Shown piece after piece: positions 25,613-60,956 of a stretch of 64,000 nucleotides of DNA (positions are counted from its first letter, which is position 1; every line of letters starts with the position of its first letter). This DNA comes from Candidatus Dojkabacteria bacterium (lineage in GTDB: Bacteria; Patescibacteriota; Dojkabacteria; J137), in the NCBI GenBank assembly GCA_025999215.1, contig AP024679.1, forward strand, positions 229,645-293,644. Reading direction: 5' to 3'. A program made the position numbers and the translations under genes. The notes under the pieces are model-generated. The model was not told the DNA's origin. It saw nothing but the letters and a program-made list of their open reading frames with translations, and searched no databases.

Positions 25613-25653
25613 GAATAGAATCAGACATTCCTTTTTTTTTATTTTCTTTTAAC

Positions 25654-28718: not shown

Positions 28719-28888
28719 TTCCTTGTTATTGCAAGGCTCTCATTTAAAGCTATAACGGGCAAACCCGGATCGTTCTACTAGAATAAATCGTTCTTCGATC
28801 TGCTCCAGAGTGATAGCTCTTTCATAGCATTTACTTATTATATCACAACGAATTTTAAACTTTAAATGTTTTGTTGCTATAATTTTTT

Positions 28889-29830: not shown

Positions 29831-30074
29831 TTTCTAATAACTTTTGTTTAATGTAATTTTCTTCCCAGTATTTAAGCGCAGTGCTTAGGTAGGTTATGGC
29901 TTCATCTCTAGCTCCAAATTCAATGGCAATGATTGCCTTGTTATAATAATTTCTTGCTTGAGTTTTGGGTATTCCTATAAATATTAAATATATGCAAAAT
30001 GCAAAAAAAGTAACTATGCTAACGGTTATAGCTAATAAAAAATTTTTTATTTTGTAATTAAGTTTATGAATCAT
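29820..30074 (-). CDS. small membrane protein
   Basis: 84 aa with a TM segment. Confidence 0.3.
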   Translation of the reverse strand: MIHKLNYKIKNFLLAITVSIVTFFAFCIYLIFIGIPKTQARNYYNKAIIAIEFGARDEAITYLSTALKYWEENYIKQKLLEITE

Positions 30075-30079
30075 GATTT

Positions 30080-32111: not shown

Positions 32112-32124
32112 TGAGCATAGATTT

Positions 32125-33236: not shown

Positions 33237-33301
33237 TAGCGATGCTGCCTGAAAAGCGGTTTCTTTTTTCCTTAAGTACCATTTTTTGTTTGTTCTGCCA
33301 G

Positions 33302-38943: not shown

Positions 38944-38946
38944 AAT

Positions 38947-41104: not shown

Positions 41105-41273
41105 GTCTTTATTCCCTTCTAATTCCCGATAGTGTATAATAGCGATAGCGATGCCATTATACACAAAACAGTCTTTATTCCCTTCTAATTCCCGATAGTG
41201 TATAATAAACGGAAAAACTAGAAAACTTTACGTTCTGTCTTTATTCCCTTCTAATTCCCGATAGTGTATAATA
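41105..41273. CRISPR. CRISPR array: 3 x 37-nt repeats GTCTTTATTCCCTTCTAATTCCCGATAGTGTATAATA, 2 spacers of 29 nt
   Basis: Repeats at 41105-41141, 41171-41207 and 41237-41273. Spacers at 41142-41170 and 41208-41236. Each repeat ends in TGTATAAT. Confidence 0.85.
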
Positions 41274-41276
41274 ACC

Positions 41277-41390
41277 AAAGGGAATAAAGCCTAATGATAA
41301 AGCAAAATAGAGCTTTTGGCTAAGTAAAAAATTAGAACAAAGTTAGTTGATCGGCCGAGTTTTTGGTTTCTTTTTGAGCAGGTTTGCCAA
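41277..41390 (+). ncRNA. candidate tracrRNA (model A): the anti-repeat AAAGGGAATAAAGCC lies 4 nt after the last repeat; extent unknown
   Basis: 41277-41291 is the reverse complement of repeat positions 3-14, with 12 of 13 matching. The TATAAT of the last repeat (41267-41272) would place a transcription start at about 41279-41281. Confidence 0.3.
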
Positions 41391-41658
41391 GCAAAATGTA
41401 CATTTTTTCGTATTGTCTTTCGGTGATGATGAGCGCTCGGATTGCGCCTTTTTGAGGTACATTTTTTTGCAGTCTGTCTATGTGTTTTTTTGTGCCGTCC
41501 AATCCTTTACATATGCGTGAATATACAGAATACTGAAGCATAAAGTAACCGTCATTCAGTAAAAACTTTCGAAATTTTGTATATTTTTTCCGCAATCCCG
41601 GATTATTTACCGGTAAATCAAAAAATACAAGTATGCGCATATATTTTTGATTATTCAT
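41332..41658 (-). CDS. cas2: CRISPR-associated endoribonuclease Cas2
   Basis: MRILVFFDLP...LQYSVYSR matches the Cas2 signature. Confidence 0.85.
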   Translation of the reverse strand: MNNQKYMRILVFFDLPVNNPGLRKKYTKFRKFLLNDGYFMLQYSVYSRICKGLDGTKKHIDRLQKNVPQKGAIRALIITERQYEKMYILLGKPAQKETKNSADQLTLF

Positions 41659-42562
41659 AACAAATACGCTTTATCCTATTAAAACTTGGTAGTTCCAACA
41701 TTTTGGAATTTTTATTTTGAATACACGAAACTAGGCTTTTGACTACATGCTCGGTGGCAGTCATCAATTGCGTTTTTTGATTTTTAATAATTACTTCAAT
41801 TTCAAAAATTTGCATTAAATGAGCTTTAGTTTGTGGCGTTAGATTAGAATCTTCTTGTTTGAGGTTGAGAGTGCGTATCAAAAAATAATCGGCAATTGGT
41901 CTAAAAGGTTCAATTAAGTCATCAGCCAAATTAAAGTTGTTGTATTCGTTGCAGTGTTTGATGCCTATACTAGGAATAAAACCATAAGCGCTACAATGCC
42001 TTGCTAGATTGGATCTGATTAGGGCGTAGGTAAAATTAAGGGCAGAATTTATAAAAATATCTTTATCTCGTGTAAAATTTTTCCCAAAAATAGTAGTGAA
42101 ATATATGCCAGATGCTCTTCCTTCTATGTTTGATTTGTCTGATGATTTTACTTGTTTGCTTAGGGTCAATAGAGTGTTACTCTCTAGAGTAAAATTAAGC
42201 AATTTGAGCACTTTGGCTTGATTGCGAATTTTTTGAGAGACTATCTGTTGCCACAATTGATTTTTGAATGGTTGAGTTAGAGAAACTTGCTCCATTATTC
42301 TTTTGCTTTGTCGTGTATGGTTTTGATAAGGTAAAATTATAGCTTCGGGTAAGTGTTTGCCATTGCATACAATTGCGCATACTTTGTTTTGAGTAAGTGA
42401 AACTATCAGGTTAGAGGTTAGAAGTGATTGGCTATCTATCACTAAAGTGTCTATATCTTCTATTGGAATTTCAAATTTTTCTCCATCTTTTTCAATCACT
42501 ATTTGAGAATTTTTTTGGCTTAGTTTGGTGTTGCTTGAGATTAGAATATTTCTAAATCCCAT
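41651..42562 (-). CDS. cas1: CRISPR-associated Cas1 (type II)
   Basis: 303 aa with Cas1 motifs including YGFIPS...DLIEPFRP; it overlaps cas2. Confidence 0.85.
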   Translation of the reverse strand: MGFRNILISSNTKLSQKNSQIVIEKDGEKFEIPIEDIDTLVIDSQSLLTSNLIVSLTQNKVCAIVCNGKHLPEAIILPYQNHTRQSKRIMEQVSLTQPFKNQLWQQIVSQKIRNQAKVLKLLNFTLESNTLLTLSKQVKSSDKSNIEGRASGIYFTTIFGKNFTRDKDIFINSALNFTYALIRSNLARHCSAYGFIPSIGIKHCNEYNNFNLADDLIEPFRPIADYFLIRTLNLKQEDSNLTPQTKAHLMQIFEIEVIIKNQKTQLMTATEHVVKSLVSCIQNKNSKMLELPSFNRIKRICYE

Positions 42563-42567
42563 TGATT

Positions 42568-45500
42568 TTACTTTAATATAATTGGTTGCCTTGTTTCTTT
42601 ATGTACTTTGTATAGCCTTCCTAGTACATCTACTTGATATTTTTCAATCAAATATAAATTTTTGGATCCTTTCCTAATGTATCCTTTGGAGCCCACATTG
42701 TCGTGCTTTACAAAACTTATTCTTGCATTTGAGGAGTCTACACCAATGAAATATCCACTCAGGTAATAATCATCATCTTTCTTAACTTTTATTTTGATAA
42801 AATCATTTTTGTAAAGGCTAAATTGAAACTCATATGTATCATCAAGTTCTTGCCAGTCGCTCTTTGGAGTATTGATAGTAATGACCTTATTTGGGAGTTC
42901 TCCTGACATAATTTCTGGAAGATAAATTGGCACAAGATAGTATTTTCCATCTTTTTTGAAAACATCCGTTCTCACAATGCGAGAGTTAAGTACATATCCA
43001 TATCCATTTCCTCTTTTTAATTTAACGGTATTGTTTTCAACAGTTTCGCTAATGTACGAAAAAATAGGGCTTTTTTTGTTGGGATCTTTCCAGGTTAATG
43101 GTTCATCTGGTTCTAATTTTCGTTTTTCATTTATAGCTTTGTTTACTGCTTTGTAATATGCTGGATCAGTGTTTTTATAAATTTTTTCAAGAGAATTATT
43201 TAAATCTTTAGATTCTTTTGATAGGTCAATTTGCTTTCTAGTACCTAGTATACTTAAACCTTTCTCGGTTACTCCTCTTTGACTATAAACTGTTTCAAGG
43301 TGCGCTGCGCCTCTAATTTTTCTTTTTGGCTCACGAGATACAATCAAAGGTTTAATTTTGTTTTTAATATCTTTATACAGTTTAAGAAAATCATCAGATT
43401 TTTTATATTTCCAAAACTCTGAGTTTATTTCGCCATTTTGCTCTTTAGAATCCATCTTTTGCGGTTTTTGTGTACCAAAAACTCTTATCAACACATCGTT
43501 TCTAAAGTTAGGCCAAGGATTGGGGAAAGATTTTTTTCGTTTATAAAAATTTTCTTTGTCGTTTTTGTGCCATTCATTCATTTTTTGAATCATCCATGGA
43601 GTGGTAATGCCTACTAGTGTGGCATCAACTGCATGGTGCCTTGCATTTAAATCACGATTTTTTGGTAATCCATACATTTTGAGCAAGTAGTTAGTCATTG
43701 CACCGGTTATCACGTAGACTTTTCGTTTTTTTCCAGGCGTTTCTCTAAATTTTAAATTGTTTTCTACGTAATTTTTGATAGTTCTTGCCGCAAATTGAGT
43801 ATCATTTAAATTTCTATTCAAGAACTCTTCCGGAGGAACATCTTTTGGTAGAGTAGTGTTTAATATTTTATTTTTTTTGGATGTATTAATGTTAAGGCTA
43901 TTTACAAAATTTACAAAGTTTTGCCATTGTTCAGAATTTTCATCTCCTCCAAAATATTCAAAAGGGGTACTGTTTCCTTTTTTTCTATTTACACTGGTTA
44001 ATACCAAAATTTTATTGTTTCTTGAATCATCAAATGATCTGCTGTAAGGTAAAGCGTGATCAATTTCAACGTAGTTATCTTCAAAGAGTTTTTCTGCAGG
44101 AATTTCTTTACCAGACAATAAACATTTGCCTAGCTGTTCTTCTCGTAATTCGTATTTAAGTATATCGTGAGGAGTTACTTCTTTAGTTTTGAAATAGTCA
44201 AAGTTTTCTTCTAAAAATTTCTTTATTTTTTCTTTTCCTTTGGTTATTTCTTCTAAATTTTTTGTTATTTTTCTTTTTTCATCTTCACTTTTTGCCAAAT
44301 CTCTAGCAAGCTCAATATTAACAAAACTTGGGCTTCCATATTTATCTACTATGGCGTTAATAACTTTTCTTGTTTGCGATATTACTTTTTTGACTACAGG
44401 ATTGGTAACTGATGAACTCGTAAATGGCGGGAGTTTTGTAAAATTTCTTTTAAGTTTTAAGGTTTCATTAGGATACTTACTGCGCAAAATTTCTTCTGCA
44501 TGGGTGTAGTTTTCTCCTTCTTTTCGAATTATTTGAGCTAATTCTTTGTAAGCTTTGACTGAAAGATTTGCAAAGCCTGATAAGTTCGGTCCGTAATTTA
44601 CCAAAGTTTCAACTTCTTGAGGACTTAGTTGTGAAATTCCCTCAAAATAATCTTTCAAATCTTCATCAGTTTTTCTAACGGTTAAGCCATACACAATTTG
44701 TTCATAAAGATTAAAATCATTTGTGATTTTTTCCCAAAGATCACCATTTCTGTCTTTAATAGCTTTTCGAAGTTTGTGATATCCACTTAAAGGTTTTAAA
44801 CCTTTGATCTTTTCTTTTTCTTTGCTTGCATCAACATCTCTAAAAGAGTACTCTTCGGGAATTTCTGCCCACTTTCTAATGTGATAATAACTTATGTTTG
44901 AAGAGTGGGAAAATATATGATCATAAATCTTATCAAGTTCGCTTTGATTCAAAGGTCTTAACTCTCCTGTTTTTGTGTTAAAAACTTTAATGTTATTTTG
45001 CAGAAAGTTAAAAAATCTAAATATTTCAAAATTTATTGAGTGTACAGGTGCTCTGCTTTCATTTGGGAAAATACCACACTTTCCAACCATTTTTTCAATG
45101 TCATCTGTTTGTGCAAAAGGCCTTTGATAATTAAAAATCTCCAAAATTTTATTTTCAAAATCTTCAGTGATCTTTTTGTTTCCAAACTTTTTTTGTTTTT
45201 TTTAAATTTCTTTGAGTTCATCTTCAAGCATTTTTCGAGTTACCAGTCTTTTGTAGTTTCCTCTTCTATTTCTCTTTTGAAACTTAAACTCTTCATCTTT
45301 ATAAAACATTTCTCCAACTGTTCTGTAATTTTTTAAAAGTTCTTGGTTTTTTGATATATTCTCTGCTAGTTTTCCGCCTTCTTCTCCTTCTAATGCAATA
45401 TTTTTACGGTTTGATTTAAACCCTCTCCTTTTGACTATGTGTATCAAAACTCGAGCTAATTCTTCATCAGTTAAGCGCTCATCTAACGCCTTGCAACGAA

Positions 45501-45813
45501 GGAACCATGGATCATGTTTTTTGATATCAAAATTGTCAAATTCCGTGGGGAAACCAAAGCTATCTAGAGCTTTTTTAAGTTTTTTTATTCTGTATTTTCT
45601 TCTTCTTACTACTCGCCTTGATGATCGGGCTTCTCTTCTCACTTGATTTGGGTGTTTATCTCCTGCATTTACTCCAGCTTCAAAAACTCTTACTCCAGTA
45701 TCAATCAACCTCACTGGACGATAATATTCATTTTCTTTCTGTATTTCTATTACAGCCCAACCAATTGTCGCAGACCCTATATCAAGGCCAAGCGTATACT
45801 GTAAATCTTTCAT
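42568..45813 (-). CDS. cas9: Cas9 (type II-C-like, about 1078 aa), reading frame interrupted by one in-frame TAA at 45202-45204
   Basis: N-terminal fragment (45202..45813) has RuvC-I LGLDIGSATIGWAVIE and the Arg-rich bridge helix. C-terminal fragment (42568..45144) has the HNH motif (DHALPYSRSFDDSRNNKILV), RuvC-II (KVYVITGAMTNYL) and RuvC-III (HHAVDATLVG). Both fragments are in the same frame. Confidence 0.85.
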
Positions 45814-47212: not shown

Positions 47213-47300
47213 TTTTCAAAAAATATTTCTAAGATCTTCCCAAAATTTCATCCAAGCTGTTGGGATCAGGTTCAGAAAATTTAGAGTGTAAATTTGCAAA
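47213..47300 (+). repeat. direct repeat copy B (the coding 3' end of ORF 47229..48725)
   Basis: See copy A. Confidence 0.75.
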
Positions 47301-48898
47301 AAAAGAATTATCTTTTCGTAGCTCTTCAAGCATCAAATAAACCCAATATTTGTAACCAAAATCAGCACCATGCCCCAATCTTAGCGAAGTTAAATAAACC
47401 CATTGTGTTGGTGGAGCGCTCATGTGCATTTTGGCCGAATGCGCAAGAGGTAGAATGTTGTAGATAAATGTTCTATCAGCTTTTGGTTCAAGGAAGGTAT
47501 CAATTTTACTGTAAAATTCCCAGACTTTTTTGTAATAAGTTTCAAAAGTTTCTATCCATTTTGGAACTAAATCAGAAAGCGCGCGAGTTTTGACTAACTG
47601 AAAATTAATATGGAAACCTTCTTTTAAAATGCTTTCAACATCAGAGCTTTCAATCATATGAATTAACCTACCTGTAGCTCTTTGTCTATTCAAATCTCTA
47701 ATGTATGCAACTGAAGTTTTTGATACTAGTATTAGTTGCCCTCTCACATCACCAATTCTTTGCATTAGGTTGTGATGATTGTGATCTTTGAGAATTATTT
47801 CACCTATTTTGCTTTTTGTTTTTTTGTCTAACTTAGATATAAATTTTAAAATTTCATTTTCATTAACACTCGGATACAAAACAGAAATGTAGCTTAGCGC
47901 CAAAGCTTCCCCAGCATCAAAATTACTGATTTTGTAAACTAACGTTTCTGATCCTTGGATTTGATCTTTAGGTTTTAGAATTTTTTTAATATTAGTGTTT
48001 TTTTCAAGAAAATCTTTGAGTTCTTGTAAGTTTTTAGGTACTGTTTTGGTACCTTCCGCATACTTTGTCAAACCTTCAAAGTTTAATTGAATTTTTTCTC
48101 CCTCAGCATATCGTCTAATATTAAGCAATGTTTCAATTTGTGTTGCTAGAGCTTGCATTCGAACATCATTTTGATGATCTCTTAATTGAGCAATATTTGT
48201 AATGTGTTGTCTTACTGTTGTGTTTATAACCATCGCCGTGCGAGCGCCTATAGGAATAAACCCTCTTGATATATCAAGCACTCTCGCGTTTAATGTTGAT
48301 TGAGTAAGTTTTTGAGGATGGTTTTGTTTTTGAATTTCATCGTTTATAAATTTTTTTAATTTATCAGTTAATAGTTTGGTCCAAATTTCATAGTTTTCAG
48401 CCAAGAATTTTTGTAAATCATCCCATTCAGCTTCTAATTCTTCTAACTTTTCAGCATCAAACAACTCAGAGTTTATTAGAGATCTTAACTTAGGAATTTT
48501 AAACTCTCCAATTTTAACGTACCTGGTAGACAATTCTTGTCCGGATTGTCTTGAATCAATGTTAAATATGGTTAGAGCTTCTTCCATGGTAATGCCTTCA
48601 ATCGATAAGAGTAGTGGGGTAGCAAGGTCAGCCACACTTGCATGCCCGTAATTCACAAATACTTTCGCTAATTTTTGAGCAGCAAAGTCAGGATCATTTT
48701 TGGAGTGTTCGTTTATTTCTCGCATGATTTCAAGCAGTCCACCGCCATTTCGAGAATATCTGGCGCCGGCCCATGCGGTGATGTTGTAAAAATCTTTTGT
48801 GTTCGTTTGGTATCGGGAGTCCTAAGTGTAATGTTTGTTTCGGTGTCAGTTAAACTTAAGATGGTAAAATTAAATTTATCTGGATCGCCAATTTCCAA
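47229..48898 (-). CDS. ThyX-like (flavin-dependent thymidylate synthase fold) protein, unusually long and possibly two tandem domains; the N-terminus probably continues in ORF 48713..48898 across a frameshift
   Basis: FNIDSRQSGQELSTRYVKIGEFKIPK parallels the ThyX block [25 protein letters not shown], but the RHR motif is not conserved. Confidence 0.3.
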
Positions 48899-49213: not shown

Positions 49214-50051
49214 ATGTTTACAAAAGTAGGCGTGATATTAAAACCTTCATCTCCTGAATTAAAAACATTGTATAGTAAAGTAAAAAGTATTTTTAACAGA
49301 GAAGGTTTTGAGGTTGTGTTGGAATCTGCAAGCGCGGATATGATAAGTGAACCAAACGGAATTGATTTTGATGATATGGCCCAATTTGCAGATTTATTAA
49401 TCTCGATAGGTGGTGATGGAACATTAATATCAGTTGCAAGGAAAAGTTTTAAATTCAATAAACCAATTGTTGGCATACATGCGGGTAACCTTGGTTTTTT
49501 GGTTGATTTTTTACCCGAAGATATTTACGACTTAGTTAAAGAATTGAAGGTTGGTAATTACAAAATAGAGGAGAGGATTATGCTTGAGGTTTTCTTAAAC
49601 AGTCAACCGATAAGTCTATTTGCTTTCAATGAGATAGTTTTATCTACGAGACAATATTGCAAAAATGAATTTCGTTAAAACTTTTGTTAATGATAAATTG
49701 TTTAATTCATATTATGCTGATGGTTTAATAGTTTCAACACCTACAGGTTCTACAGCATACAACCTTTCGGCAGGTGGTCCAATTGTTCATCCTTGTTTGG
49801 ATGGTTTTATTTTGACTCCTATTTGCCCCCATTCACTTACCCAGAAACCAATAGTTATTCCAAATAATTTGGATTTGTCGATTACTGTGGATCGTAACTC
49901 TGTTTTGGTGTTAGATGGGCAAGAAAGTTATAATTTTAACCCAGAAGATAAATTAACCATAAAAAAAGCTAAAGAAACTGTAAAACTATTATTTAAAAAA
50001 GATAGGGATTATTTTCAAACCTTGAAAGAAAAATTGAAATGGGGAAATTAG
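49214..50051 (+). CDS. nadK: NAD kinase, split by an apparent frameshift near 49660
   Basis: The GGDGT motif is in ORF 49214..49678. The C-terminal DGLIVSTPTGSTAYNLSAGGPIV is in ORF 49665..50051. Confidence 0.8.
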
Positions 50052-50131
50052 TTTTCTAAAAATTTAATTTGACAAACCTCCTGAAATTTTTTAGTATAAC
50101 TTAGCTAACTTATGTTTTTTATTAAGTACCT

Positions 50132-50942
50132 ATGAAAAAACCTATGCTAGATTCCAATCAAAACTCAGAAAGCGAGTTTGATAGATTAAGAATTTTTAAT
50201 TTTATCATGGGTATTTTTCATTTTGCACAAGGGGTTTTGATGGTTCTGTTGAGCAAGGATTATACTGAGACCTTAACCACATCATTTATAAATATCGTAG
50301 GTACTTCTGAAAATTTTAGGTTTGTTAGCCAGACTCAAGAATTTGTAACTTTTAAATTAGGACCTGCTGTTGCTTTGTTTTTGTTTATTTCTGCTATGGC
50401 GCACTTTTTGTTAACTTTGCCAGGAATTTTTGAATGGTATGTAAAAAATTTAAAAAAGGGAGCGAATTATGCAAGGTGGTATGAATACTCAATTAGCTCA
50501 TCTGTAATGATTGTTATAATTGCAATATTGGTTGGAATGTACGATGCACCTAGCTTATTGCTGCTTGTTTGGTTTAAATGCTTGTATGATTTTCTTTGGC
50601 TTGATGATGGAACTTCACAATCAAACAACTTCTAAGGTTGACTGGACAGCATTTATTTATGGATGTTTTGCTGGAATCATTCCGTGGATAGCTATTGCTT
50701 GGTATTTCTTTGGCGCATTCACAAATGCTAGAGATAATGGTTGGGAAGTACCTGATTTTGTGGTTGGAATCTTGATATCACTATTTATTTTCTTCAATGT
50801 TTTTGCTGTAAACATGTACTTGCAGTACAAAAAGATTGGACCATGGAAAAACTACTTATTCGGCGAGAAGATGTATATTGTTTTGAGTTTGCTAGCAAAA
50901 TCGGCTTTGGCATGGCAAGTATTTAGTGGAACGTTGAGGTAG
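50132..50942 (+). CDS. heliorhodopsin, split by a one-base homopolymer indel near 50553
   Basis: FNFIMGIFHFAQ, RWYEYSISSSVMIVIIAIL, GCFAGIIPWIAIAWYF and YIVLSLLAKSALAWQVFSGTL closely parallel heliorhodopsin 48C12 as I recall it, including the Schiff-base lysine in AKSALAW. A putative promoter, TTGACA at 50069-50074 with TAGTAT 17 nt downstream, lies upstream. Confidence 0.75.
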
Positions 50943-50968
50943 TGATTAGAACTTTTATCGTGTAAGTA

Positions 50969-51430
50969 ATGACATTAATAAAAATCATTTATGCCTCTAC
51001 TTCTGGCAACACCGAGTTAGTTTGTGAATTTATAGCAGATATTTTGCAAAAAGAAAATTTTTCAGTGCAACTTTTTAGATCGGAATTGTGTGATGTTCAA
51101 GTATTTGATGATTCTAAGTTTTTTATTCTAGCTACCTCTACCTGGGAACATGGTGAAGTTAATCCTTATTTTACAAATTTGCTTAATTCAATGATGCAAT
51201 ATGATTTTTCAAATAAATTTGCGGGTTTTATAGGCTTGGGTGATGTACGTTACGAGCCCGTTTTTTTTACTAGAGGTATAGATGAGATAGAAAAAGTTTT
51301 CACAGCGAATTCTGGCACTAAGCTCTGTGAAACTTTAAGAATTAACGGTGAACCTCATGATCAGCTTGAAGAACTAGTTATCCCTTGGGTTAAAATTTTT
51401 AAAAATCAAATTTTGCAAAATGAAAAATAG
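50969..51430 (+). CDS. flavodoxin
   Basis: IIYASTSGNTE FMN-binding loop; 153 aa. Confidence 0.7.
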   Translation: MTLIKIIYASTSGNTELVCEFIADILQKENFSVQLFRSELCDVQVFDDSKFFILATSTWEHGEVNPYFTNLLNSMMQYDFSNKFAGFIGLGDVRYEPVFFTRGIDEIEKVFTANSGTKLCETLRINGEPHDQLEELVIPWVKIFKNQILQNEK

Positions 51431-53141
51431 GTTTTCAGTTAAAATTGTAGGTGAATCGGGACAAGGTATTAATTTAATGGGAGAAGTTTTGAGTAAAGCT
51501 TTTTTAGAGCTTGGTTATTATGTTTTTGGTTATAGAGAATACCCTTCTTTGATAAAAGGAGGAAGCGCTTCATATCAGTTAGATATTTCAGCTCAAAATA
51601 TAAATTCTTCTTTTAAATCTTCCAACGTGATTATCGGTTTGAGCAGGATTGCATTAAGCCAATATTTAAGTGATATATCAGATGGTGGGTTAATAGTTCA
51701 TAATGTTGTTAAATTTCAAAAGAGTGAAGCTGAGAATCATATTTTAAAATCTAAAAATGCAAGCGAAGAATTTATTGATACTAATTCTTTGCTAGACAAA
51801 TTAAATTTAAATTACAGATACGCCAATACATTTTTGGTAAGTTTAATCTGGGCTAGGCTAGGTTTTGATGTTGAAATTCTGCAAGAAATTTTTAAAGAAT
51901 ACTTTAAAGAACGAGATGATATTTTAGAAAATAACTTGACATGCATTAACTTGGGTTTTGAGGAGGGATCTAATCAAAGTTTAGTTGAGCATGGATTAGA
52001 TAAGCCAGAAAAAAAAGCAAATTTAGAAATAATGACGGGAAATGAAGCGATTGCGCGAAGCGCAATCGCTTGTGGTGTAAGAGCTTTTTATGCTTATCCA
52101 ATGACTCCTGCATCAAGTATTTTAGAATATCTGGCAAACAATGCCATTAATACCGGGATGATAGTAAAACAAGCAGAAGATGAAATAACCGCAGCGCAAA
52201 TGACTTTGGGGAGTATGTTTATGGGAACACGAGCCATGACAGCTACATCTGGAGGAGGTTTTGATTTAATGACTGAAACCATATCTCTCGCAGGCATGAC
52301 GGAAACACCTTTTGTATGCGTTTTAGCACAAAGGCCGGGACCTGCCACTGGTTTACCAACCTGGACCCAAGCAGGTGACTTGAATTTAGCTATTTTTGCA
52401 GGGCATGGTGAATTTCCTAGATGCGTTTTAGCATGTAGCGACTTGGAGTCTTGTCATAGGCTTACTCAACAGGCGTTTAATATTGCTGAGTATTTTCAGA
52501 TTCCAGTTATAGTTTTGACGGAAAAACATATTGCAGAATCGTACTTTACCAAAGATACAAATTTTGAAAATTTGCCAATTATACGTAACTTGGTGGAAGG
52601 TAAGGCGCTTGAGAAGCTTTCACCAAATGATAGATATCAGTTTACAGATTCTGGAGTTTCTAAAAGATGGGTGATTGGAGCGAGTAAAGCAACTTTTTTA
52701 GCTAATAGTGATGAACACTCTGAAGATGGTTCTGTAACTGAAGATGCAAGTTTGGCGCAACAAATGTATGAAAAAAGAATGAAAAAGTACACTGGACTAC
52801 TGAAAGTCATTCCAGAACCAACTCTTTTTGGAAAAACTTCGGGAGAATTTTTGCTGATTGGTTGGGGAAGCGTTAAGTTATCTGTTTTAGATGCAATAAA
52901 TTTTGCTGATAAAAATGTTTCTTATCTTCACCTTGAGGTGCTTCACCCATTAGATATAGCTAAGTTATCTAATATTATGGGTAGATTCAAAAAGTATATT
53001 GCAATTGAACAAAATTATCTAGGTCAAATGTCTAAAATTTTAGAAATGGAATTAAAGATAAGTTTCACTGATAAATGGTTGAAGTATGATGGTAGACCTT
53101 TTTTTGTAGATGAAGTTATTAAATATATTAATAAATTATAA
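51420..53141 (+). CDS. porA: 2-oxoacid (pyruvate):ferredoxin oxidoreductase, fused gamma-alpha subunit
   Basis: The N-terminal gamma-like domain is followed by the alpha domain (NEAIARSAIACGVRAFYAYPMTPAS). Confidence 0.8.
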   Translation: MKNRFSVKIVGESGQGINLMGEVLSKAFLELGYYVFGYREYPSLIKGGSASYQLDISAQNINSSFKSSNVIIGLSRIALSQYLSDISDGGLIVHNVVKFQKSEAENHILKSKNASEEFIDTNSLLDKLNLNYRYANTFLVSLIWARLGFDVEILQEIFKEYFKERDDILENNLTCINLGFEEGSNQSLVEHGLDKPEKKANLEIMTGNEAIARSAIACGVRAFYAYPMTPASSILEYLANNAINTGMIVKQAEDEITAAQMTLGSMFMGTRAMTATSGGGFDLMTETISLAGMTETPFVCVLAQRPGPATGLPTWTQAGDLNLAIFAGHGEFPRCVLACSDLESCHRLTQQAFNIAEYFQIPVIVLTEKHIAESYFTKDTNFENLPIIRNLVEGKALEKLSPNDRYQFTDSGVSKRWVIGASKATFLANSDEHSEDGSVTEDASLAQQMYEKRMKKYTGLLKVIPEPTLFGKTSGEFLLIGWGSVKLSVLDAINFADKNVSYLHLEVLHPLDIAKLSNIMGRFKKYIAIEQNYLGQMSKILEMELKISFTDKWLKYDGRPFFVDEVIKYINKL

Positions 53142-53994
53142 AATGTGTAATGGATGCAAAGTGAAATACAGCGATTATTACAGCGATAATATTTATACAT
53201 GGTGCACGAATTGTGGTAACTACGCTATTCATCAAGCGTTAAAGAGATCTTTAGTAAAATTAAAAATACCACCTTATCAAGTTTTATTATGTTTTGATAT
53301 AGGATGTCATGGAAATGGAGCAGATAAAATCGGCGGTTATAGATTTCATGGGTTGCATGGAAGAGTTATACCTTTTGCTGTAGGAGCTCACTTAGCTAAT
53401 CACAAAATGCCAGTTATCGCTTTTGGAGGAGATGGCGGCACTTTAGATGAAGGAATTAATCATTTAATTCATGCTGTAAGGTCTAATTATAATATAACTT
53501 TCATTCTTCATAACAATGGAAACTTTGGTTTGACCAAGGGGCAAGTGACTCCGACATCACCCAAAGGTCTAGCGATGAATTCAAATCCTTTTGGGCTCAT
53601 TGAAGATCAGATAAATGTTTGTAAATTTTTATTAAATTTGGAGCCTAGTTTTGTTGCGCGTACTTTTTCCGGTAATATTCATCAAATGGAGCGAGTGTTT
53701 GTAGATGCTATTACACACAAAGGATTTAGTTTTGTGGAAATTTTGCAAGCATGCCCAACGTATAACAAAGTAAACACTCATGAAAAAATATATTCAAAAG
53801 TCTACGATGTAGATGAACTGGATGATTACGATCCTCAAAATTTGTCGCAAGCCTTAAAAGTATCTAGCGATTTGGATAATAAAATAGCTACAGGTGTTTT
53901 GTATTTTAACAAGACAAAGAAAGATTTTTATTCTAGACTACCTCAAAGACTAAATCGAAATAAAGCTTTAATCGATGAGGTAAAAAATTATTAG
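53110..53994 (+). CDS. porB: 2-oxoacid:ferredoxin oxidoreductase beta subunit (TPP-binding)
   Basis: CxxC...GCHGNG and the GDGG TPP motif; it overlaps porA. Confidence 0.8.
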   Translation: MKLLNILINYKMCNGCKVKYSDYYSDNIYTWCTNCGNYAIHQALKRSLVKLKIPPYQVLLCFDIGCHGNGADKIGGYRFHGLHGRVIPFAVGAHLANHKMPVIAFGGDGGTLDEGINHLIHAVRSNYNITFILHNNGNFGLTKGQVTPTSPKGLAMNSNPFGLIEDQINVCKFLLNLEPSFVARTFSGNIHQMERVFVDAITHKGFSFVEILQACPTYNKVNTHEKIYSKVYDVDELDDYDPQNLSQALKVSSDLDNKIATGVLYFNKTKKDFYSRLPQRLNRNKALIDEVKNY

Positions 53995-56100
53995 TTATTT
54001 TTTCACAAAAATTTTGAGATCTACGCAGTAACATTTGTCAGGAGTGAGCATCATTGGGTTGATGTCTATAGATTCAATTTCCGGATAAGTTTGTACAATT
54101 TTTTGCAATTTTTGTAATGTTTCAAGTATCAAATTTAGATCATATTTGATACCACCCCGATAGCCGTTAAGAATTTTATAAACATCTGTTGATTTTATAG
54201 ATTTTTCTATTATTTCTTTTGTAGCTGGTACTATGAATGAAGAAGTATCTTTGAAAACTTCCGCATAAATACCACCATGTCCGAATAAAATCAAATGTCC
54301 GAAACCGTGTCCGAAATTTGTATACACATTGCTGTCACCATCTCGTATCGCACCAGACATCAATTCTATTTTAGAATTTACAAATTCTTGTATTAATAAC
54401 TCTTCGCTTTTGCCATATTTTTGACAAAGTGACATTAGTTTGTTGAAGGAGTGTTTGAGTGCTTCTTTTGAGTTGATGTCCAAATAAATGGCTTTGTATT
54501 CTGTTTTGTGGGGAAGCGACTCAGTAGTTACTTTTAATACAACAGGAAAACCTAATTTATTCACAAAATCTATGGCTTCATCAAAAGTATGAATTATTTC
54601 TTCTTGCGGTAGCGTCAATCCAAACTCTCTAGCAATACTTTTTGATAGCATTTCCGGTAGAGGTTCTGTTTGAACGGTCGCAATTTTAGACAAAATATTT
54701 TTATATTTCCCTATTTTTAGGTTAAGTTTTGGTATTTTATAAGAGTTCTTATTGTAAAAATTAAAATTTATTCCATGTTTGATGGCTTTGACAGCAAGAC
54801 TTGCAAATTTATAACCTGCGATTTTTCTATCATCTAAGCGCTCAAGCGCATCATCCATATATTTATCACCTAGTAAAATTGGAACTATACATTTTTTAGA
54901 TTTGAAAGATATTTCTGAAATTATTTTGACAGTTTCCTCTATTTGAGTTACATATTGCGGACTGATTAAAACAAATATAATATCAACTTTTTTTGATTTT
55001 TCTAAAATATTTAGAGCTTGTGCATACCGTGAAGCATCAGCATCACCTAGGATATCAATAGGATTGTGCACACTTGCGTTTGAAGGGAGAATTTTTTGCA
55101 ATTCTTTTTCAATTTCAGACTCTAGTTTCGCAGTAACTATGTTTTCATTCGATAGTAGGTCTAGTAGCATTACAGCGGGACCACCAGCATTTGTTAAAAT
55201 TGCCGTCTTACTTCCTTTCGGTATTTTACTTCTTTCAAAAAATAAAAGAGTAGCAAAAAGTTCTTCAATGCTATCTACCAAATTTACTCCAGCTTGAGTT
55301 AATGCTGTGGATGTTATTACATTGTTTGTAGCGAGCGATCCTGTGTGAGAATGTATAGCTTTTTGGGAAGCTTCTCCCTTTCCGGTATTTAGTATTACAA
55401 TTGGCTTGTTTGCTTTGCTTGCTATTTTTACAAAGTCATTTCCGTCATAAAAATCTTCAAGATAACCACCTATCACTGATACTTCGGGATCGTTTATCCA
55501 TGCGTTTAAAATTTCATTCTCGTTAATATCTATTTTGTTTCCAAGAGAGACAAAATATTTAAATCCCAAGTTTCGTGACTGCGCCATATCAAGAAGTGCG
55601 GTATTTATAGCGCCCGATTGTGAGAAAAATGCAATTTTGCCTGAAATTGCATTCACAGCAGAAAAGGAAGCATTCATTTTATTGTGTGTGGAAGTAATTC
55701 CCAAACAATTTGGTCCAAGTATTCTTATTCCATACTTTTGAGCAATTTCTTTAAGTTCTAATTCTCTCTTCAAACCGTCTTGTCCGCTTTCTCTAAAACC
55801 TGCTGTAATGATTATCGCCAAGCTTACTTTTTTTTCTCCCGCTTCAATTAAAACATCTTTAACATAATCTGTAGGTATTGCTATGACTACCGCATCAATT
55901 TTTTCAGGAATATCAAGTATGCTCTTGTAAACTTTTTTTCCAAACAAATTTTTGTATTTTGGATTAACAAAGTAAATGCTTCCTTTAAATTCGGAATTTA
56001 TTAAGTTATTGTAAATTACCGTACTAAGTTTATGAGGGCTTGATGAAATTCCAATTATAGCTATGTTTTTGGGAGAAAATACTTTGTTTAGATCACTCAT
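53995..56100 (-). CDS. acd: acetyl-CoA synthetase (ADP-forming), fused alpha-beta
   Basis: N-terminal CoA-binding domain (NIAIIGIS), succinyl-CoA-synthetase-like domains and a C-terminal ATP-grasp. Confidence 0.8.
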   Translation of the reverse strand: MSDLNKVFSPKNIAIIGISSSPHKLSTVIYNNLINSEFKGSIYFVNPKYKNLFGKKVYKSILDIPEKIDAVVIAIPTDYVKDVLIEAGEKKVSLAIIITAGFRESGQDGLKRELELKEIAQKYGIRILGPNCLGITSTHNKMNASFSAVNAISGKIAFFSQSGAINTALLDMAQSRNLGFKYFVSLGNKIDINENEILNAWINDPEVSVIGGYLEDFYDGNDFVKIASKANKPIVILNTGKGEASQKAIHSHTGSLATNNVITSTALTQAGVNLVDSIEELFATLLFFERSKIPKGSKTAILTNAGGPAVMLLDLLSNENIVTAKLESEIEKELQKILPSNASVHNPIDILGDADASRYAQALNILEKSKKVDIIFVLISPQYVTQIEETVKIISEISFKSKKCIVPILLGDKYMDDALERLDDRKIAGYKFASLAVKAIKHGINFNFYNKNSYKIPKLNLKIGKYKNILSKIATVQTEPLPEMLSKSIAREFGLTLPQEEIIHTFDEAIDFVNKLGFPVVLKVTTESLPHKTEYKAIYLDINSKEALKHSFNKLMSLCQKYGKSEELLIQEFVNSKIELMSGAIRDGDSNVYTNFGHGFGHLILFGHGGIYAEVFKDTSSFIVPATKEIIEKSIKSTDVYKILNGYRGGIKYDLNLILETLQKLQKIVQTYPEIESIDINPMMLTPDKCYCVDLKIFVKK

Positions 56101-56194
56101 AAATTCATTTTACATTTTTTTCTAAAATTACTCAAAAAAGTTGTCTAACATAACTAAAATTGAATTTATATTTAAATAATTGTAAAATTGAGTC

Positions 56195-57247
56195 ATGAAT
56201 TTAGAAATTGTACAAATTAGTAAAGATAGTTTATATGATTTAGCTTTGGTATTTGCTATTGTTTTTCTAGTAGCCATGGGTCTTTATTTGGCAAAAGTAA
56301 CTATAAAATTAGTGCTTGAAAAAATCCAAATTACGAATGAATCGAAATTATTTTTCTTCCAAAAATTTTTTCAAAGGATAAATATTTGGCTTTTTATTGC
56401 TGTTGGATTCTTTGTTGCAAGTAGGATGGTTGAAGTAAAAAAAGAACTTGAAACTTTATTCTTTGTAATTGTTGTGGTGTTGCTTGGCTATCATGCAATA
56501 TATTTTCTGAATTATGTTTTGAGTGAAGCGTTGATTAAAACTTTGAGCAGGGATAACGATGATTATTCCGATTTTCAAGAAGATAAAACTGTTGTTAGGT
56601 TTATAAGCGTTGTGTTTAGAAGTTTGATGTGGGGGTTGCTTGTAATAATAATTTTACAAAACATTGGTTACAACGTCTCAGCATTACTTGGAGGACTTGG
56701 AATTGTAGGTTTGGCTGTGGCTTTTGCGGTGCAAAACATACTTGAAGATATATTTTCCTTCTTGTCTATTTATTTTGATAAGCCTTTTAGGGTCGGCGAC
56801 TTTATAACTATAAATCAAGATTCTGGAACAATTCAGAAAATTGGAATCAAAACTACCAGAATAAAAACTTTAGAAGGGCAAGAATTAATTGTTTCTAATA
56901 AAGAGTTAACCTCCATAAGAATTAATAATTATAAAAGAATGGATGAGAGGCGAGTTCAGTTTCAAATAGGTGTAGAGTATTCAACTAGCAATTCGAAACT
57001 AAAACAAGTTAATAAAATAATAGAAGGTATTTTTGATGAGTTGAAAATTGCTTATCTTGATAGAGTGCATTTCAAAGAATTTGGAGATTTTGCGTTAATT
57101 TTTGAAGTTGTTTACTATGTTAAGTCTCCAGATTACAAAGTTTACATGGATGTTCAACAAAAAATAAATTTTGAAATAAAAGAAAGATTTGAAAAAGAGC
57201 AGATTGAAATGGCTTTCCCTACTCAAAAAATTATTCTACAAAAATAA
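56195..57247 (+). CDS. mscS: mechanosensitive channel, MscS family
   Basis: TM helices plus the MscS beta-domain (FRVGDFITI...GTIQKIGIKTTRIKTLEGQELIVSNKEL). Confidence 0.7.
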   Translation: MNLEIVQISKDSLYDLALVFAIVFLVAMGLYLAKVTIKLVLEKIQITNESKLFFFQKFFQRINIWLFIAVGFFVASRMVEVKKELETLFFVIVVVLLGYHAIYFLNYVLSEALIKTLSRDNDDYSDFQEDKTVVRFISVVFRSLMWGLLVIIILQNIGYNVSALLGGLGIVGLAVAFAVQNILEDIFSFLSIYFDKPFRVGDFITINQDSGTIQKIGIKTTRIKTLEGQELIVSNKELTSIRINNYKRMDERRVQFQIGVEYSTSNSKLKQVNKIIEGIFDELKIAYLDRVHFKEFGDFALIFEVVYYVKSPDYKVYMDVQQKINFEIKERFEKEQIEMAFPTQKIILQK

Positions 57248-57248
57248 G

Positions 57249-57737
57249 TTAATTTCGTTTGTTTAGTTTTGCAACATATTCCACAAAAGTAATTAACAAA
57301 ACTATACCTAAAATTGCTAATATCAAGTAATTTATAGTATCTTGCGGTTGAAAGATTCTGTATAGATCAAGAATAAGATCTCGCATAACGCAAAGCCATC
57401 CTGAATGATCTTTGGGTAAAATTTTTAAAATCACTAAAGCAAAAACTTTAAACATTGATAAAGGAAATATCGCATTTGTGATAGAGCGTTGATAAAGAAG
57501 TTTGATAGAGTATTTTTCATCAAAATACTCACCGAGTTCTAAAACAAACGAATAAATTAAAAGTGTTCCTAACATCAAAAGAACTAGAGTTAAGAGTGCC
57601 AAAATTACTTCTGCTAGTGTAGAATTTTCAATAAAAAGAACACTAACGGGAAGATAAATTGCGCTGAATATGAAAAAAGCTCTTTCAGCATCATTTAGTT
57701 TGAAGATGTTTTTGCGGCTTTTTTTGAATATTTTCAA
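57249..57737 (-). CDS. hypothetical membrane protein
   Basis: Hydrophobic 162-aa ORF. Confidence 0.3.
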   Translation of the reverse strand: MKIFKKSRKNIFKLNDAERAFFIFSAIYLPVSVLFIENSTLAEVILALLTLVLLMLGTLLIYSFVLELGEYFDEKYSIKLLYQRSITNAIFPLSMFKVFALVILKILPKDHSGWLCVMRDLILDLYRIFQPQDTINYLILAILGIVLLITFVEYVAKLNKRN

Positions 57738-57781
57738 TTTGTTTTAAACTTAAAAACTTAAATTTTCTAATTATATCAATT

Positions 57782-58543
57782 TTAGTTGTTTTCCCAAAGA
57801 TTTTCAAAAAATTTTTTCTCGAGATATGTAATACTTTCAAGTGACAACTCAATAGTGTTTTCTTTGCTTAGTATCAGCGTTTCACCGCCACATAAGAGTA
57901 TTGTTTGGGTTAGATTAAAGTCTTCTGTGTTTACCATTTTTGTTTGAAAATTTCCTCTAAATTCTAGGTAAAATTTTTTAATTTCTGAGTTAATAGCTAA
58001 TTTGGTAAGTAGCTTTGGAGTGTAGATTTCCTTGATTACAGATTTTGTTTGCACAATTGATTCAAAAAAAACGACTGTTTGATCTACCCCTAAAATTTCT
58101 TCCCAAGTCTGAGCCAAAAATACCAAAATTTCTTTGTTTTTTATTAACTTTTGCGCTATTAATTTTGAAAAATTATTTACCGGATAGGTTTTACAAAAAT
58201 CAATACTTTGATTTGATTGAGACATGTAGACTTTAATGTCGGGTAAAAGAGTTTGCAGTGTTTTGGCTTTGTAAAGCTTGTTTGAAACAAGTTGTTTTAG
58301 ATTTTCAAAGCTTGCAATTTTGGCTTTAATTGCTTTGTTTTCTTTGTAAATTTCTACAATTCCTTGATTTTTTAATTTTTCACATATTCTGTAGGTGGTG
58401 GTTCTGTTTATGCCTGATCTTTTTGATAAGTTAAGCATTGTCTGTGGGCCTTCTTGAATTAAGACAAAGCATATTTTAGATTCTTCTTCGTCAAGATCAA
58501 GATTGTTGAGAAAATCTATTAATTGCAGGTTTGTAGTGTTCAT
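57782..58543 (-). CDS. TrmB-like winged-helix transcriptional regulator
   Basis: N-terminal wHTH (TMLNLSKRSGINRTTTYRICEKLKNQGIVE). Confidence 0.45.
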   Translation of the reverse strand: MNTTNLQLIDFLNNLDLDEEESKICFVLIQEGPQTMLNLSKRSGINRTTTYRICEKLKNQGIVEIYKENKAIKAKIASFENLKQLVSNKLYKAKTLQTLLPDIKVYMSQSNQSIDFCKTYPVNNFSKLIAQKLIKNKEILVFLAQTWEEILGVDQTVVFFESIVQTKSVIKEIYTPKLLTKLAINSEIKKFYLEFRGNFQTKMVNTEDFNLTQTILLCGGETLILSKENTIELSLESITYLEKKFFENLWENN

Positions 58544-58650
58544 GTTTTAAACAAGTTGTGGTAATTTATAATTATTACTATTGTATACAATATTTTAAAA
58601 TGTTGCAATAGTGAACAATTTTTTTGTTTAAGGTATGTTAAAATATTTAT

Positions 58651-59703
58651 ATGAAAAATTTCTTAATATTTTTTGGGTTTTTAATTGGATTCGTTGGAGG
58701 GTATGTAGGTATAAATTTTTTGAACTCAAATACCTCACAAGTTAATTTAGAAAATCAAGATTTAAACGTAGTTAGTTTTGAAAAAATAGAGACTTTAAAA
58801 AATAAGGAAGAAACATCTAATCAAAATGTTAATTTGCCGCAACCTGAAGATCAAACTGTAAGGTTAGCGATAGTAGGAGATATAAGTTTTGTTGGGCTTA
58901 CAGGCGAGTATATGCTTGAGTCTGGAGCAACACCTTTCCAGTTCGTTTGGGAGGAATTTGATAAATATGATTTGGTTATAGGAAATTTGGAAACTAACAT
59001 TTCGGAGCCTGGAATTGGTTCTCCTCAGCCTGGTAAAAATTATACTTTCAATTCTCCGATTGAATCGCTTGATAAAATGAAGGGCAATTTAGATGTTGTG
59101 TCCCTAGCAAATAATCATACTAACGATTACGGTAGCCAAGCTCTTTTGAGGCAAATTGAATTGTTAAATGAAAATGGCATTGTAAGTTTTGGAGCTGGCA
59201 AAGACATAGATGAAGCTTTTGAGATTAAGATTGTTGAAGTAAAGGGTTTGAGGATAGGTTTTATGGGAGTTAATTCAATTGAAGGTTATTATCAAGATGT
59301 TCGATCTGGTAGAGCTGGAAGTGCATATTTTGATGAGAATTTAATTAAATCTAGTATCGAGAAGTATAAAGATAGGTATGATTTTTTGATTGTGATGCCA
59401 CATTGGGGAGTAGAGCATCAAGAGGTTGCAAATTCATGGCAAAGGTCTTGGGCGCGAAAATTTGTGGAGTGGGGAGCTGATTTGATAGTTGGCGCGCATC
59501 CTCATGTGGTGCAAGATGAGGAAGTTATAGATGGTGTTCCAGTTTATTATTCACTAGGCAACTTTATTTTTAGCGGGTTTGGATGGAACCCTAAGGCTAT
59601 TGAGAGTTTTATACTTGGAATTGAAATTAAGGATGGAAAAATAGTAAACACTTCAAAAACAAATGTAAAACTTACTTACCACGGCTTCCCTGAAATTATT
59701 TAA
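58651..59703 (+). CDS. capA: CapA/PgsA-family metallophosphatase (poly-gamma-glutamate capsule synthesis protein-like)
   Basis: RLAIVGDISF, GNLETNIS, LANNHTNDYG and MPHWGVE motifs. Confidence 0.7.
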   Translation: MKNFLIFFGFLIGFVGGYVGINFLNSNTSQVNLENQDLNVVSFEKIETLKNKEETSNQNVNLPQPEDQTVRLAIVGDISFVGLTGEYMLESGATPFQFVWEEFDKYDLVIGNLETNISEPGIGSPQPGKNYTFNSPIESLDKMKGNLDVVSLANNHTNDYGSQALLRQIELLNENGIVSFGAGKDIDEAFEIKIVEVKGLRIGFMGVNSIEGYYQDVRSGRAGSAYFDENLIKSSIEKYKDRYDFLIVMPHWGVEHQEVANSWQRSWARKFVEWGADLIVGAHPHVVQDEEVIDGVPVYYSLGNFIFSGFGWNPKAIESFILGIEIKDGKIVNTSKTNVKLTYHGFPEII

Positions 59704-59705
59704 AG

Positions 59706-59734
59706 TTGACATTTTAAAGTGACAGTGGTATAAT
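59706..59734 (+). promoter_or_regulatory. consensus sigma-70 promoter TTGACA-17nt-TATAAT upstream of the tandem paralogs
   Basis: TTGACA at 59706-59711, 17-nt spacer, TATAAT at 59729-59734; the ORF starts at 59745. Confidence 0.5.
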
Positions 59735-59744
59735 TGGTCGCTTA

Positions 59745-60914
59745 TTGTTTTTTTTTATGGGAGAATGTCCTCATCATGAACCACAATTTAAAAGAGGTGG
59801 TAGTTTTTTCGATGCAGAAGTAGTAGGAAATGGATTAAATAAGATAAAGTCTTGTGTTGATAGTTTCGAATCTTATGAAACTTTGAAAGAGAGTACAAAT
59901 GAATATAGGGAATTTAAAAATACAGTTCAAAGTATTTTAGAGTCAAAAAGGACAAAACTTTTGATAAGGTTTTTTGAATTACCTAGCATAAGTGAAGCTT
60001 ACTTAACGAGTGGAATAAATTATAAAGAAATTAAAATACCTCCAGAATTACAACCATACGAAGGGCTTGTTTTGGCAAGAATTCATATCGTTCTTGATAA
60101 TTATTTTAGTCAAGTCAATCAACAACTTGCCAATGTGCTTGGTGATGTTGATGGATCTCGTGATAATTTACTAACTACACCAGATTATATCCTCGAACAA
60201 ATATTCAGTTTCTTTAAAACAAAAGGTGATGAAGTTAATCAACAAAATTTTACAGAATTTTTAAATAATTTAGCCAGAACAGAGGAAAATGATTTACAAT
60301 TTTTAACTAGTGCATTTTCAATGTTGGTTTTTGCAGATGAAAATTATGAGGTGATTAATGATGATAATATACTGACTTTTGTTGAAGTATTTACAGTGAT
60401 TTATTTAAGTTTGTTTTTTGCCAAAAATAAATATGGAAAAATAGATAAACCGCAAGATTTAAATAACCTAGATTTATGGAATATTATTTTACAAGAAAAA
60501 AATTTATCTAAAATTATTAGTTTAATTTCTGAAGTTTTGATATATAACATCAACGGAGTTTGGGCTAGCATGATGAGAGAATTGGGGCTTAAGAATGGTG
60601 TTTATAAAGATTTTTATGGTGGTATTAATTTTGCAAATGATCTTGATTTAAATAGATTTTTAGGTGCGTTAGATTCTGTTTATCCTGGTCTTAGATTATC
60701 TTGGGATGAAAATGGTAATTTTGATTATGAATTTTCAGAAAAAAATATGAGTAATCATAAGTCTAATGTTGTTAGTGCTCAAGGTGGTATTTGTCCTGCT
60801 TTAATTGCATCTGAAGGTCCAGAGTTTTTAAAAGCGATATTTAGTTATCTTCTTCAGCGTGGAGTGATTGATTATATCTTAAATCCTTATACTAGAAGCT
60901 ATTTCGAACAATAA
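59745..60914 (+). CDS. hypothetical protein, paralog A (389 aa)
   Basis: It shares blocks with the next gene (NGVWASMMRELGL vs NGSWAEMVRILNL; GGICPALIAS vs GGRCPANVTI; LSWDENGNFDYEFSEKN vs ISWQLTNGKWELSFSYKD). Confidence 0.4.
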   Translation: MFFFMGECPHHEPQFKRGGSFFDAEVVGNGLNKIKSCVDSFESYETLKESTNEYREFKNTVQSILESKRTKLLIRFFELPSISEAYLTSGINYKEIKIPPELQPYEGLVLARIHIVLDNYFSQVNQQLANVLGDVDGSRDNLLTTPDYILEQIFSFFKTKGDEVNQQNFTEFLNNLARTEENDLQFLTSAFSMLVFADENYEVINDDNILTFVEVFTVIYLSLFFAKNKYGKIDKPQDLNNLDLWNIILQEKNLSKIISLISEVLIYNINGVWASMMRELGLKNGVYKDFYGGINFANDLDLNRFLGALDSVYPGLRLSWDENGNFDYEFSEKNMSNHKSNVVSAQGGICPALIASEGPEFLKAIFSYLLQRGVIDYILNPYTRSYFEQ

Positions 60915-60956
60915 ATAAATTTTTTAGTTATATAACATTTCATTCTTTTTTAATCT

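Follow-up and report, generated by a model that had tools for sequence, protein, structure and literature searches.

A heliorhodopsin gene of a hot spring Dojkabacteria genome, split by a probable consensus artefact of the assembly

The 64-kb stretch of the metagenome-assembled genome (MAG) KatS3mg085 analysed here (hereafter the window, to which all coordinates refer unless stated otherwise) carries on its plus strand, at 50132-50942, a heliorhodopsin gene whose reading frame is interrupted in the deposited sequence at 50567. Deleting the G at this position restores exactly the 269-aa heliorhodopsin GIW58907.1 of a co-occurring sister strain, and we consider the frameshift to be very probably a consensus artefact rather than the mark of a pseudogene. 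The encoded protein is an ordinary member of its family in a lineage where heliorhodopsins are already known, and it is mis-annotated through a probable assembly error.

The window belongs to the class Dojkabacteria, order J137 (GTDB c__Dojkabacteria; o__J137), and thus to a CPR bacterium as the initial annotation had supposed. The MAG originates from Katase hot-spring sediment (52 °C, pH 7.2) and was assembled with metaFlye 2.8.3 from PacBio Sequel II HiFi reads above Q20 (Kato et al. 2022, PMC9671151). According to Supplementary Table S3 of that study KatS3mg085 (AP024679) is a circular genome of 862,240 bp with a coverage of 10.8x, 852 CDSs and a GC content of 31.4%, and the co-occurring sister bin KatS3mg086 (BPIZ01000001-6), assigned to the same order, comprises 226 kb in six contigs at 5.9x. 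The main text of PMC9671151 mentions neither rhodopsins nor frameshifts nor a polishing step.

According to the list of open reading frames the region 50132-50942 is covered by two overlapping ORFs on the plus strand, 50132..50635 (167 aa) and 50520..50942 (140 aa), the second of which lies in the +1 frame relative to the first. Each of them matches the Pfam family Heliorhodopsin (PF18761) on its own, the first over profile positions 1-127 (E 5e-39) and the second over positions 122-242 (E 3e-53), and the joined protein covers the profile completely (1-242 of 242, E 1.6e-94, 316 bits with a cut-off of 26.7). Since both parts as well as the joined protein match the family, the split heliorhodopsin gene is real, far beyond what chance would produce. 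The joined protein also reached 328.8 bits against the NCBIfam HeR equivalog NF038020 (cut-off 100, positions 1-244 of 244), and a sequence search against the PDB retrieved the heliorhodopsins TaHeR (6is6, 3e-74) and 48C12 (6su3, 2e-59), both of which align to the 269-aa form without a gap across the junction. The assignment to the heliorhodopsins made in the initial annotation is hence confirmed by two profile collections as well as by sequence and fold matches in the PDB.

The 5' part of the gene, 50132..50566 on the plus strand, comprises codons 1-145 (helices A-C and the start of helix D) and includes the codons of His30 (50219-50221), His91 (50402-50404) and the putative counterion Glu118 (50483-50485). 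The 3' part, 50568..50942, also on the plus strand and delimited by profile, alignment and frame repair, comprises codons 146-269 and the stop codon (helices D-G) and includes Ser252 (50886-50888) and the predicted Schiff-base lysine Lys256 (50898-50900), both within the motif SLLAK. In the source record the two parts appear as hypothetical proteins, the first as BCX13742.1 and the second, covered only as 50586-50942, as BCX13743.1.

An alignment to 48C12, proposed as a check in the initial annotation, places H30, H91, E118, S252 and K256 opposite H23, H80, E107, S237 and K241 of that protein. The Schiff-base lysine on helix 7 is thus conserved, and the block LLAKSALAWQ, in which the initial annotation had recognised the retinal-binding lysine, is indeed present, its lysine aligning to K241. 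On helix 7 the SxxxK motif takes the form SLLAK, with S252 and K256 corresponding to S237 and K241. An alignment of the present protein with 36 homologues (58-76% identity) has 50 invariant columns, and E118, H30 and H91 are invariant in all 37 sequences. The roles of Glu118 as counterion and of His30 and His91 as histidine pair are presumed here from the literature on 48C12 and TaHeR. For Glu107 of 48C12 the counterion function is stated in PMC10434121, and the SxxxK motif has been used as the criterion for a heliorhodopsin helix 7 (PMC9166423).

The AlphaFold2 model of the repaired protein (pLDDT 90.4, pTM 0.86) contains seven long helices and a beta hairpin between helices A and B (strands 45-57 and 62-75), in agreement with the seven-transmembrane protein of roughly 270 aa that had been anticipated. 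A Kyte-Doolittle scan resolved only six hydrophobic segments, helices C and D being merged, and the AlphaFold helices were used instead. In a Foldseek search against the PDB the best ten matches were all heliorhodopsins (E 4e-19 to 2e-14, 44-52% identity); their TM-scores range from 0.76 to 0.84 when normalised by query and from 0.80 to 0.90 when normalised by target. Type-1 rhodopsins followed with a best E-value of 1e-3, TM-scores of about 0.5-0.55 and 8-14% identity, which is a likeness at the level of the fold only. Membership in the type-1 family is not indicated, as no match to Bac_rhodopsin was obtained at E <= 0.01 and the motif on helix 7 is SxxxK and not DxxxK. By homology with the characterised members we infer a seven-helix membrane protein with the N-terminus on the cytoplasmic side; a crude count of lysine and arginine residues in the loops between the AlphaFold helices gives 8-12 for the would-be cytoplasmic and 4-5 for the outer loops, a distribution that would fit such an N-in orientation.

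The position of the frame break was located by means of a contig of KatS3mg086 (L082), which carries the intact gene of GIW58907.1, a protein found in the 90% identity cluster of the N-terminal fragment. Over 11.3 kb (window 49635-60940) this contig is 99.87% identical to the window, with 15 mismatches and two indels. In both indels the window has the extra base, and each of them breaks a gene, namely those encoding the heliorhodopsin and NAD kinase. The strain-variable part of the overlap, 49647-51696, contains the two indels as well as 14 of the 15 SNPs. Three of the SNPs fall within the heliorhodopsin gene, and all three are synonymous, as follows from the identity of the repaired and the sister protein. 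The protein is 100% identical to its sister counterpart on both sides of the break, so that no second lesion is present.

The frame can be repaired either by removing one base, which gives 269 aa, or by adding two, which gives 270 aa. The comparison with the sister contig shows that the frame-breaking base is the G at 50567 (plus strand; window CTGCTTGTTTGG, sister CTGCTTTTTGG), which sits within a run of five T in the sister sequence, CTGCTT[G]TTTGG. The insertion of two T would leave a one-residue gap at the junction relative to the solved structures; the deletion of one base is preferred on account of the gapless alignment, in which apsllllfglnacmiffg faces ivallaifgvnasmilfg of 48C12, and of the identity to GIW58907.1. 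Judged from the sequences, the true junction reads ...SLLLLFGLNAC... and not ...LLLLVFGLNAC.... The initial annotation had attributed the break to a homopolymer indel and proposed to insert a single T at CTTGTTTGG. This repair fails, as it leads to ...LLLLVLV* followed by many further stop codons, and since the added base is not a T according to the sister comparison, an error in homopolymer length does not account for the break either.

The second indel affects the gene directly upstream. In the NAD kinase gene (49214..50051, plus strand) an additional C at 49647 interrupts the reading frame (sister TCTAGAGAC, window TCTACGAGAC), and the N- and C-terminal domains are therefore found on separate ORFs, which are entered in the source record as BCX13740.1 and BCX13741.1. 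Deleting this C yields an uninterrupted NAD kinase of 278 aa. The sister contig ends only 12 nt before 49647, and its version shows the NE-x10-M spacing typical of the family. We had also considered a homopolymer error (A4 to A5) at 49661-49665 as the cause of this break, but the sister contig shows the extra base to be the C at 49647. NAD kinase is normally essential.

Similar insertions were detected elsewhere in the window. The same metagenome yielded two further contigs, L083 and L084, which stem from related strains, are each 10.3 kb in length and cover the window at 24512-34810 with identities of 96.6% and 98.8%, respectively. In the three-way alignment of this segment the window has 12 specific single-base insertions and no deletion; L083 has five insertions of its own, which split its IleRS gene, and L084 has none. 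Wherever strain contigs overlap the window, the total thus amounts to 14 single-base insertions and no deletions. The genes broken in this way encode an S26 signal peptidase, IleRS (999 aa in L084, a 917-aa ORF in the window) and a 665-aa Big_5/Peptidase_C39_2 protein and include ORFs at 32.2-33.4 kb, all of which are intact in L084.

At all 12 testable sites the removal of one base produced the L083 allele and the removal of another base the L084 allele, whereas two or more differences between L083 and L084 fall within 3 nt at only about 7% of positions in the background. As two different deletions give the two strain alleles, the window combines at these sites the two alleles of one multi-nucleotide polymorphism, which points to a systematic consensus artefact of the metaFlye HiFi assembly at strain-polymorphic positions.

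The base at 50567 presumably arose in the same way. The metaFlye consensus, built from HiFi reads of closely related strains at about 11x, would have kept both alleles of a polymorphic codon and so generated the G. The two alleles would be CTT and CTG, both encoding Leu145, merged to CTT+G; with a single other haplotype available for this site, CTG is the presumed one of the two. The strains would accordingly carry CTTTTTGG or CTGTTTGG where the window reads CTTGTTTGG or, in longer context, CTGCTTTTTGG or CTGCTGTTTGG (or CTGCTTGTTGG) in place of CTGCTTGTTTGG. At 49647 the alleles would be AGA and CGA, both encoding arginine, merged to A+CGA, so that TCTAGAGAC or TCTCGAGAC would stand in place of TCTACGAGAC; here, too, the second allele is a deduced one. 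HiFi consensus sequences are usually accurate, and a G inserted into a run of T is an atypical HiFi error, which counts against an artefact. However, changes that consist of insertions only, lie at strain-polymorphic sites, affect essential genes and occur in a mixed-strain consensus of 11x are unlike gene decay and argue for it.

Two more genes of the window look split. One encodes an Amidase_3 protein (22713-23362, minus strand), of which one ORF covers profile positions 69-172 and the overlapping upstream ORF has no match, and the other YceG/MltG (63239-63992, minus strand), whose profile is divided between two overlapping ORFs (positions 61-140 and 158-273).

The extra base might alternatively reflect a real and recent event, by which a one-base insertion inactivated the gene in KatS3mg085, leaving a young pseudogene, while it was kept in KatS3mg086. 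The base is present in the deposited circular HiFi assembly, accessory genes do get lost in reduced genomes, and SNPs separate the two strains in the very segment concerned. However, a real frameshift here would require others in NAD kinase, IleRS, signal peptidase, MltG/YceG and further genes, which is implausible for a genome of 862 kb. Taking furthermore into account that all 14 indels are insertions, that each of the 12 testable sites is the union of two observed alleles and that the protein matches its sister completely on either side of the break with no second lesion, a young pseudogene seems unlikely.

A +1 shift near the T run, through programmed ribosomal frameshifting or through slippage during transcription at CTT-G-TTT, would also restore the protein. 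The intact gene of the sister strain effectively refutes this reading, all the more so as the 36 aligned homologues are likewise encoded in a single frame. No recognised +1 motif is visible at the site, where the zero frame has neither a slow codon nor a stop and a Shine-Dalgarno-like stimulator is absent upstream, and extra bases of the same kind occur in many unrelated genes.

With the consensus artefact as the preferred reading, the practical value of the finding lies in a correction, since owing to a spurious base the heliorhodopsin of AP024679 is annotated as two hypothetical proteins. Analyses of pseudogenes or gene content that take KatS3mg085 as a “finished” MAG would overcount gene loss, and so, probably, would analyses of other MAGs that metaFlye assembled from mixed strains at low HiFi coverage.

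The biological weight of the heliorhodopsin itself is small. The initial annotation implied that such a gene is a novelty in this type of organism, which does not hold, as CPR heliorhodopsins in genomes lacking retinal synthesis, including those of Dojkabacteria, have already been published. Chiriac et al. (2022, PMC9166423) described 115 rhodopsins in 86 CPR genomes, 98 of them inferred heliorhodopsins and seven of these in Dojkabacteria, and discussed them in the context of fermentative, reduced genomes. Bulzu et al. (2021, PMC8612252) listed the Patescibacteria among the monoderm phyla bearing heliorhodopsin. Dojkabacteria proteins named “heliorhodopsin HeR” by NCBI are 62-64% identical to the present protein. 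In a scan of the GTDB species representatives the best match was 65% identical, the source genome not being among the matches; relatives were found in many MAGs of Saccharibacteria, Dojkabacteria, Paceibacterota, Berkelbacteria and Woykebacteria and furthermore in Dehalococcoidia, Anaerolineales and Thermoplasmatales.

The heliorhodopsins described from CPR bacteria (PMC9166423, PMC8612252) belong to the same family and the same radiation, including Dojkabacteria, occur in fermentative hosts with small genomes and have the S-x-x-A-K motif on helix 7 in common with the present protein. However, their commonest motifs are SLVAK, SLIAK and SFVAK, whereas SLLAK is found here, and they were reported from freshwater lakes, whereas the present protein derives from hot-spring sediment of 52 °C.

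Among the structurally solved members the closest one is TaHeR of the Thermoplasmatales archaeon SG8-52-1 (PDB 6is6, 7u55, 7clj), with 52% identity over the full length and no gap through the repaired junction. Both proteins share the lysine motif SxxxK, the counterion glutamate and the histidine pair, and the model of the present protein superposes on TaHeR at a TM-score of 0.83 when normalised by query and of 0.89 when normalised by target. The host of TaHeR likewise lacks a retinal pathway, and external retinal is taken up (PMC9296517). The present protein differs from it in its host, a CPR bacterium instead of an archaeon, in an E-F loop that is longer by eight residues (...FFGAFTNARDNGWE...) and in a slightly longer A-B hairpin. 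The founding member 48C12 (PDB 6su3, 6uh3) shares 44% identity, with H23, H80, E107, S237 and K241 all conserved. It differs in the phylum of its host and in Gln213, to which Met228 corresponds here, a position also occupied by methionine in TaHeR.

To our knowledge no heliorhodopsin of a CPR bacterium has been characterised, and what we infer about function is drawn from homology with characterised heliorhodopsins. In the present protein all-trans retinal would be bound to Lys256 through a protonated Schiff base, for which Glu118 would serve as counterion. The chromophore would have to be taken up from outside: no carotenoid or retinal synthesis families were found among the scanned ORFs of the 64-kb window (nearly all of those with at least 90 aa), in line with the earlier remark that no retinal genes are visible nearby. 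Heliorhodopsin apoproteins are known to take up external retinal quickly, and CPR bacteria that have rhodopsins are devoid of blh (PMC9296517). The retinal is hence presumably scavenged. Visible light would then drive a slow photocycle, and the protein may act as a sensor or regulator via protein-protein contact and not as an ion pump. Prokaryotic heliorhodopsins are generally viewed as sensors or regulators, for which a link to oxidative stress has been proposed (PMC8612252, PMC9166423), and direct regulation has been shown for glutamine synthetase, a photolyase and the ABC transporter OmrDE (PMC11109279).

Candidate partners may be sought in the gene neighbourhood, in which the order is tRNA-Asn, NAD kinase, heliorhodopsin, a gap of 26 nt, flavodoxin and the α- and β-subunits of a 2-oxoacid:ferredoxin oxidoreductase (OFOR). 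A promoter-like sequence, TTGACA-17-TAGTAT, is located at 50069..50097 on the plus strand, 35 nt upstream of the heliorhodopsin start, and agrees with the consensus at 10 of 12 positions; as such sites are not enriched in the window (29 found, 22.6 expected in shuffled sequence), it is to be read as a consensus match only. Flavodoxin is encoded at 50969..51430 on the plus strand, 26 nt downstream of the heliorhodopsin stop codon, and the OFOR at 51420..53994 on the same strand (α-subunit 51420-53141, β-subunit 53110-53994). An ADP-forming acetyl-CoA synthetase, representing an ATP-yielding step of fermentation, follows on the minus strand (53995..56100). Flavodoxin, OFOR and this synthetase fit the fermentative host assumed in the initial annotation. 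Farther downstream, 5 kb 3' of the heliorhodopsin gene, an MscS channel is encoded at 56195-57247. An MscS-like gene was also observed about 1.5-2.5 kb 3' of the heliorhodopsin in six Anaerolineales loci (L017, L018, L021, L032, L049, L051).

As the starts of the OFOR genes overlap the preceding genes, a common transcript with heliorhodopsin and flavodoxin is possible. Going one step further, the heliorhodopsin could be functionally coupled to flavodoxin and OFOR, with light as a proxy of oxidative stress gating an oxygen-sensitive fermentative step. The gap of only 26 nt on the same strand and the overlaps among flavodoxin and the two OFOR genes are in favour of such a coupling, as is the preservation of the order heliorhodopsin-flavodoxin-OFOR in the sister contig and, more loosely, in the contig L081 of the nearest other relative, whose heliorhodopsin is 74% identical. 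In the systems of PMC11109279 heliorhodopsins bind the products of neighbouring genes (glutamine synthetase, photolyase, ABC transporter), and as in the present genome their genes lie head-to-tail with metabolic genes, the candidate partners. NAD kinase, flavodoxin and OFOR, however, fall outside the ten neighbour groups published there, so that flavodoxin and OFOR would make a new type of partner.

Among the 82 heliorhodopsin loci compared OFOR was found nearby in only three and flavodoxin in only two, and flavodoxin, OFOR or NAD kinase beside a heliorhodopsin gene were restricted to the closest relatives and one Dehalococcoidia locus. In L081 two small genes intervene, one of them on the opposite strand, so that no single operon exists there, and in the locus L067 the OFOR genes lie on the opposite strand. 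Over so short an evolutionary distance the synteny can, furthermore, simply be inherited. Because OFOR is nearby in just three of the 82 loci, the functional link is a lead of low probability, and the more specific scenario for J137, in which the heliorhodopsin is co-transcribed with flavodoxin and OFOR and regulates them by direct contact, appears just as improbable. If it were true, it would add a new class of heliorhodopsin partners in an ultra-small symbiont and let the core of fermentation, which is sensitive to oxygen, respond to light as an oxidative-stress warning. For searches of heliorhodopsin partners the adjoining flavodoxin and OFOR genes offer a cheap lead, which is the only, if mildly, new point in this respect.

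Apart from the heliorhodopsin region the window contains two CRISPR-Cas loci. The first is a type V-D locus in a Dojkabacteria genome: it encodes a Cas12d/CasY protein of 1212 aa (4532-8167, plus strand), which matches the NCBIfam equivalog NF033951 over its full length with 1132 bits (cut-off 250), and an adjoining Cas1 (2789-3820, minus strand). The second locus is of type II (41105-45813, minus strand) and consists of an array at 41105-41283 with at least three repeats of about 36 nt and a period of 66, Cas2 (41335-41670), Cas1 (41654-42562, minus strand) and Cas9. The latter falls into two pieces, 45205-45813 (profile positions 1-216) and 42571-45144 (240-1070), owing to an in-frame TAA within ...KEI*KKQKK..., beside long runs of A and without a frameshift.

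A block comprising an ArsP_1 permease, a DUF1980 protein, a Big_5 protein and a Thy1-like protein at 37353-40353 and 47229-48725 is syntenic with positions 1808-6561 of L081, which indicates that this contig stems from a related Dojkabacteria lineage. The type II CRISPR-Cas locus is missing from the syntenic region of L081. Two further genes resemble toxin-antitoxin or defence functions, one encoding a fusion of a HEPN and a Polbeta-type nucleotidyltransferase domain (19569-20366, plus strand) and the other a PIN-domain protein (8282-8656, minus strand).
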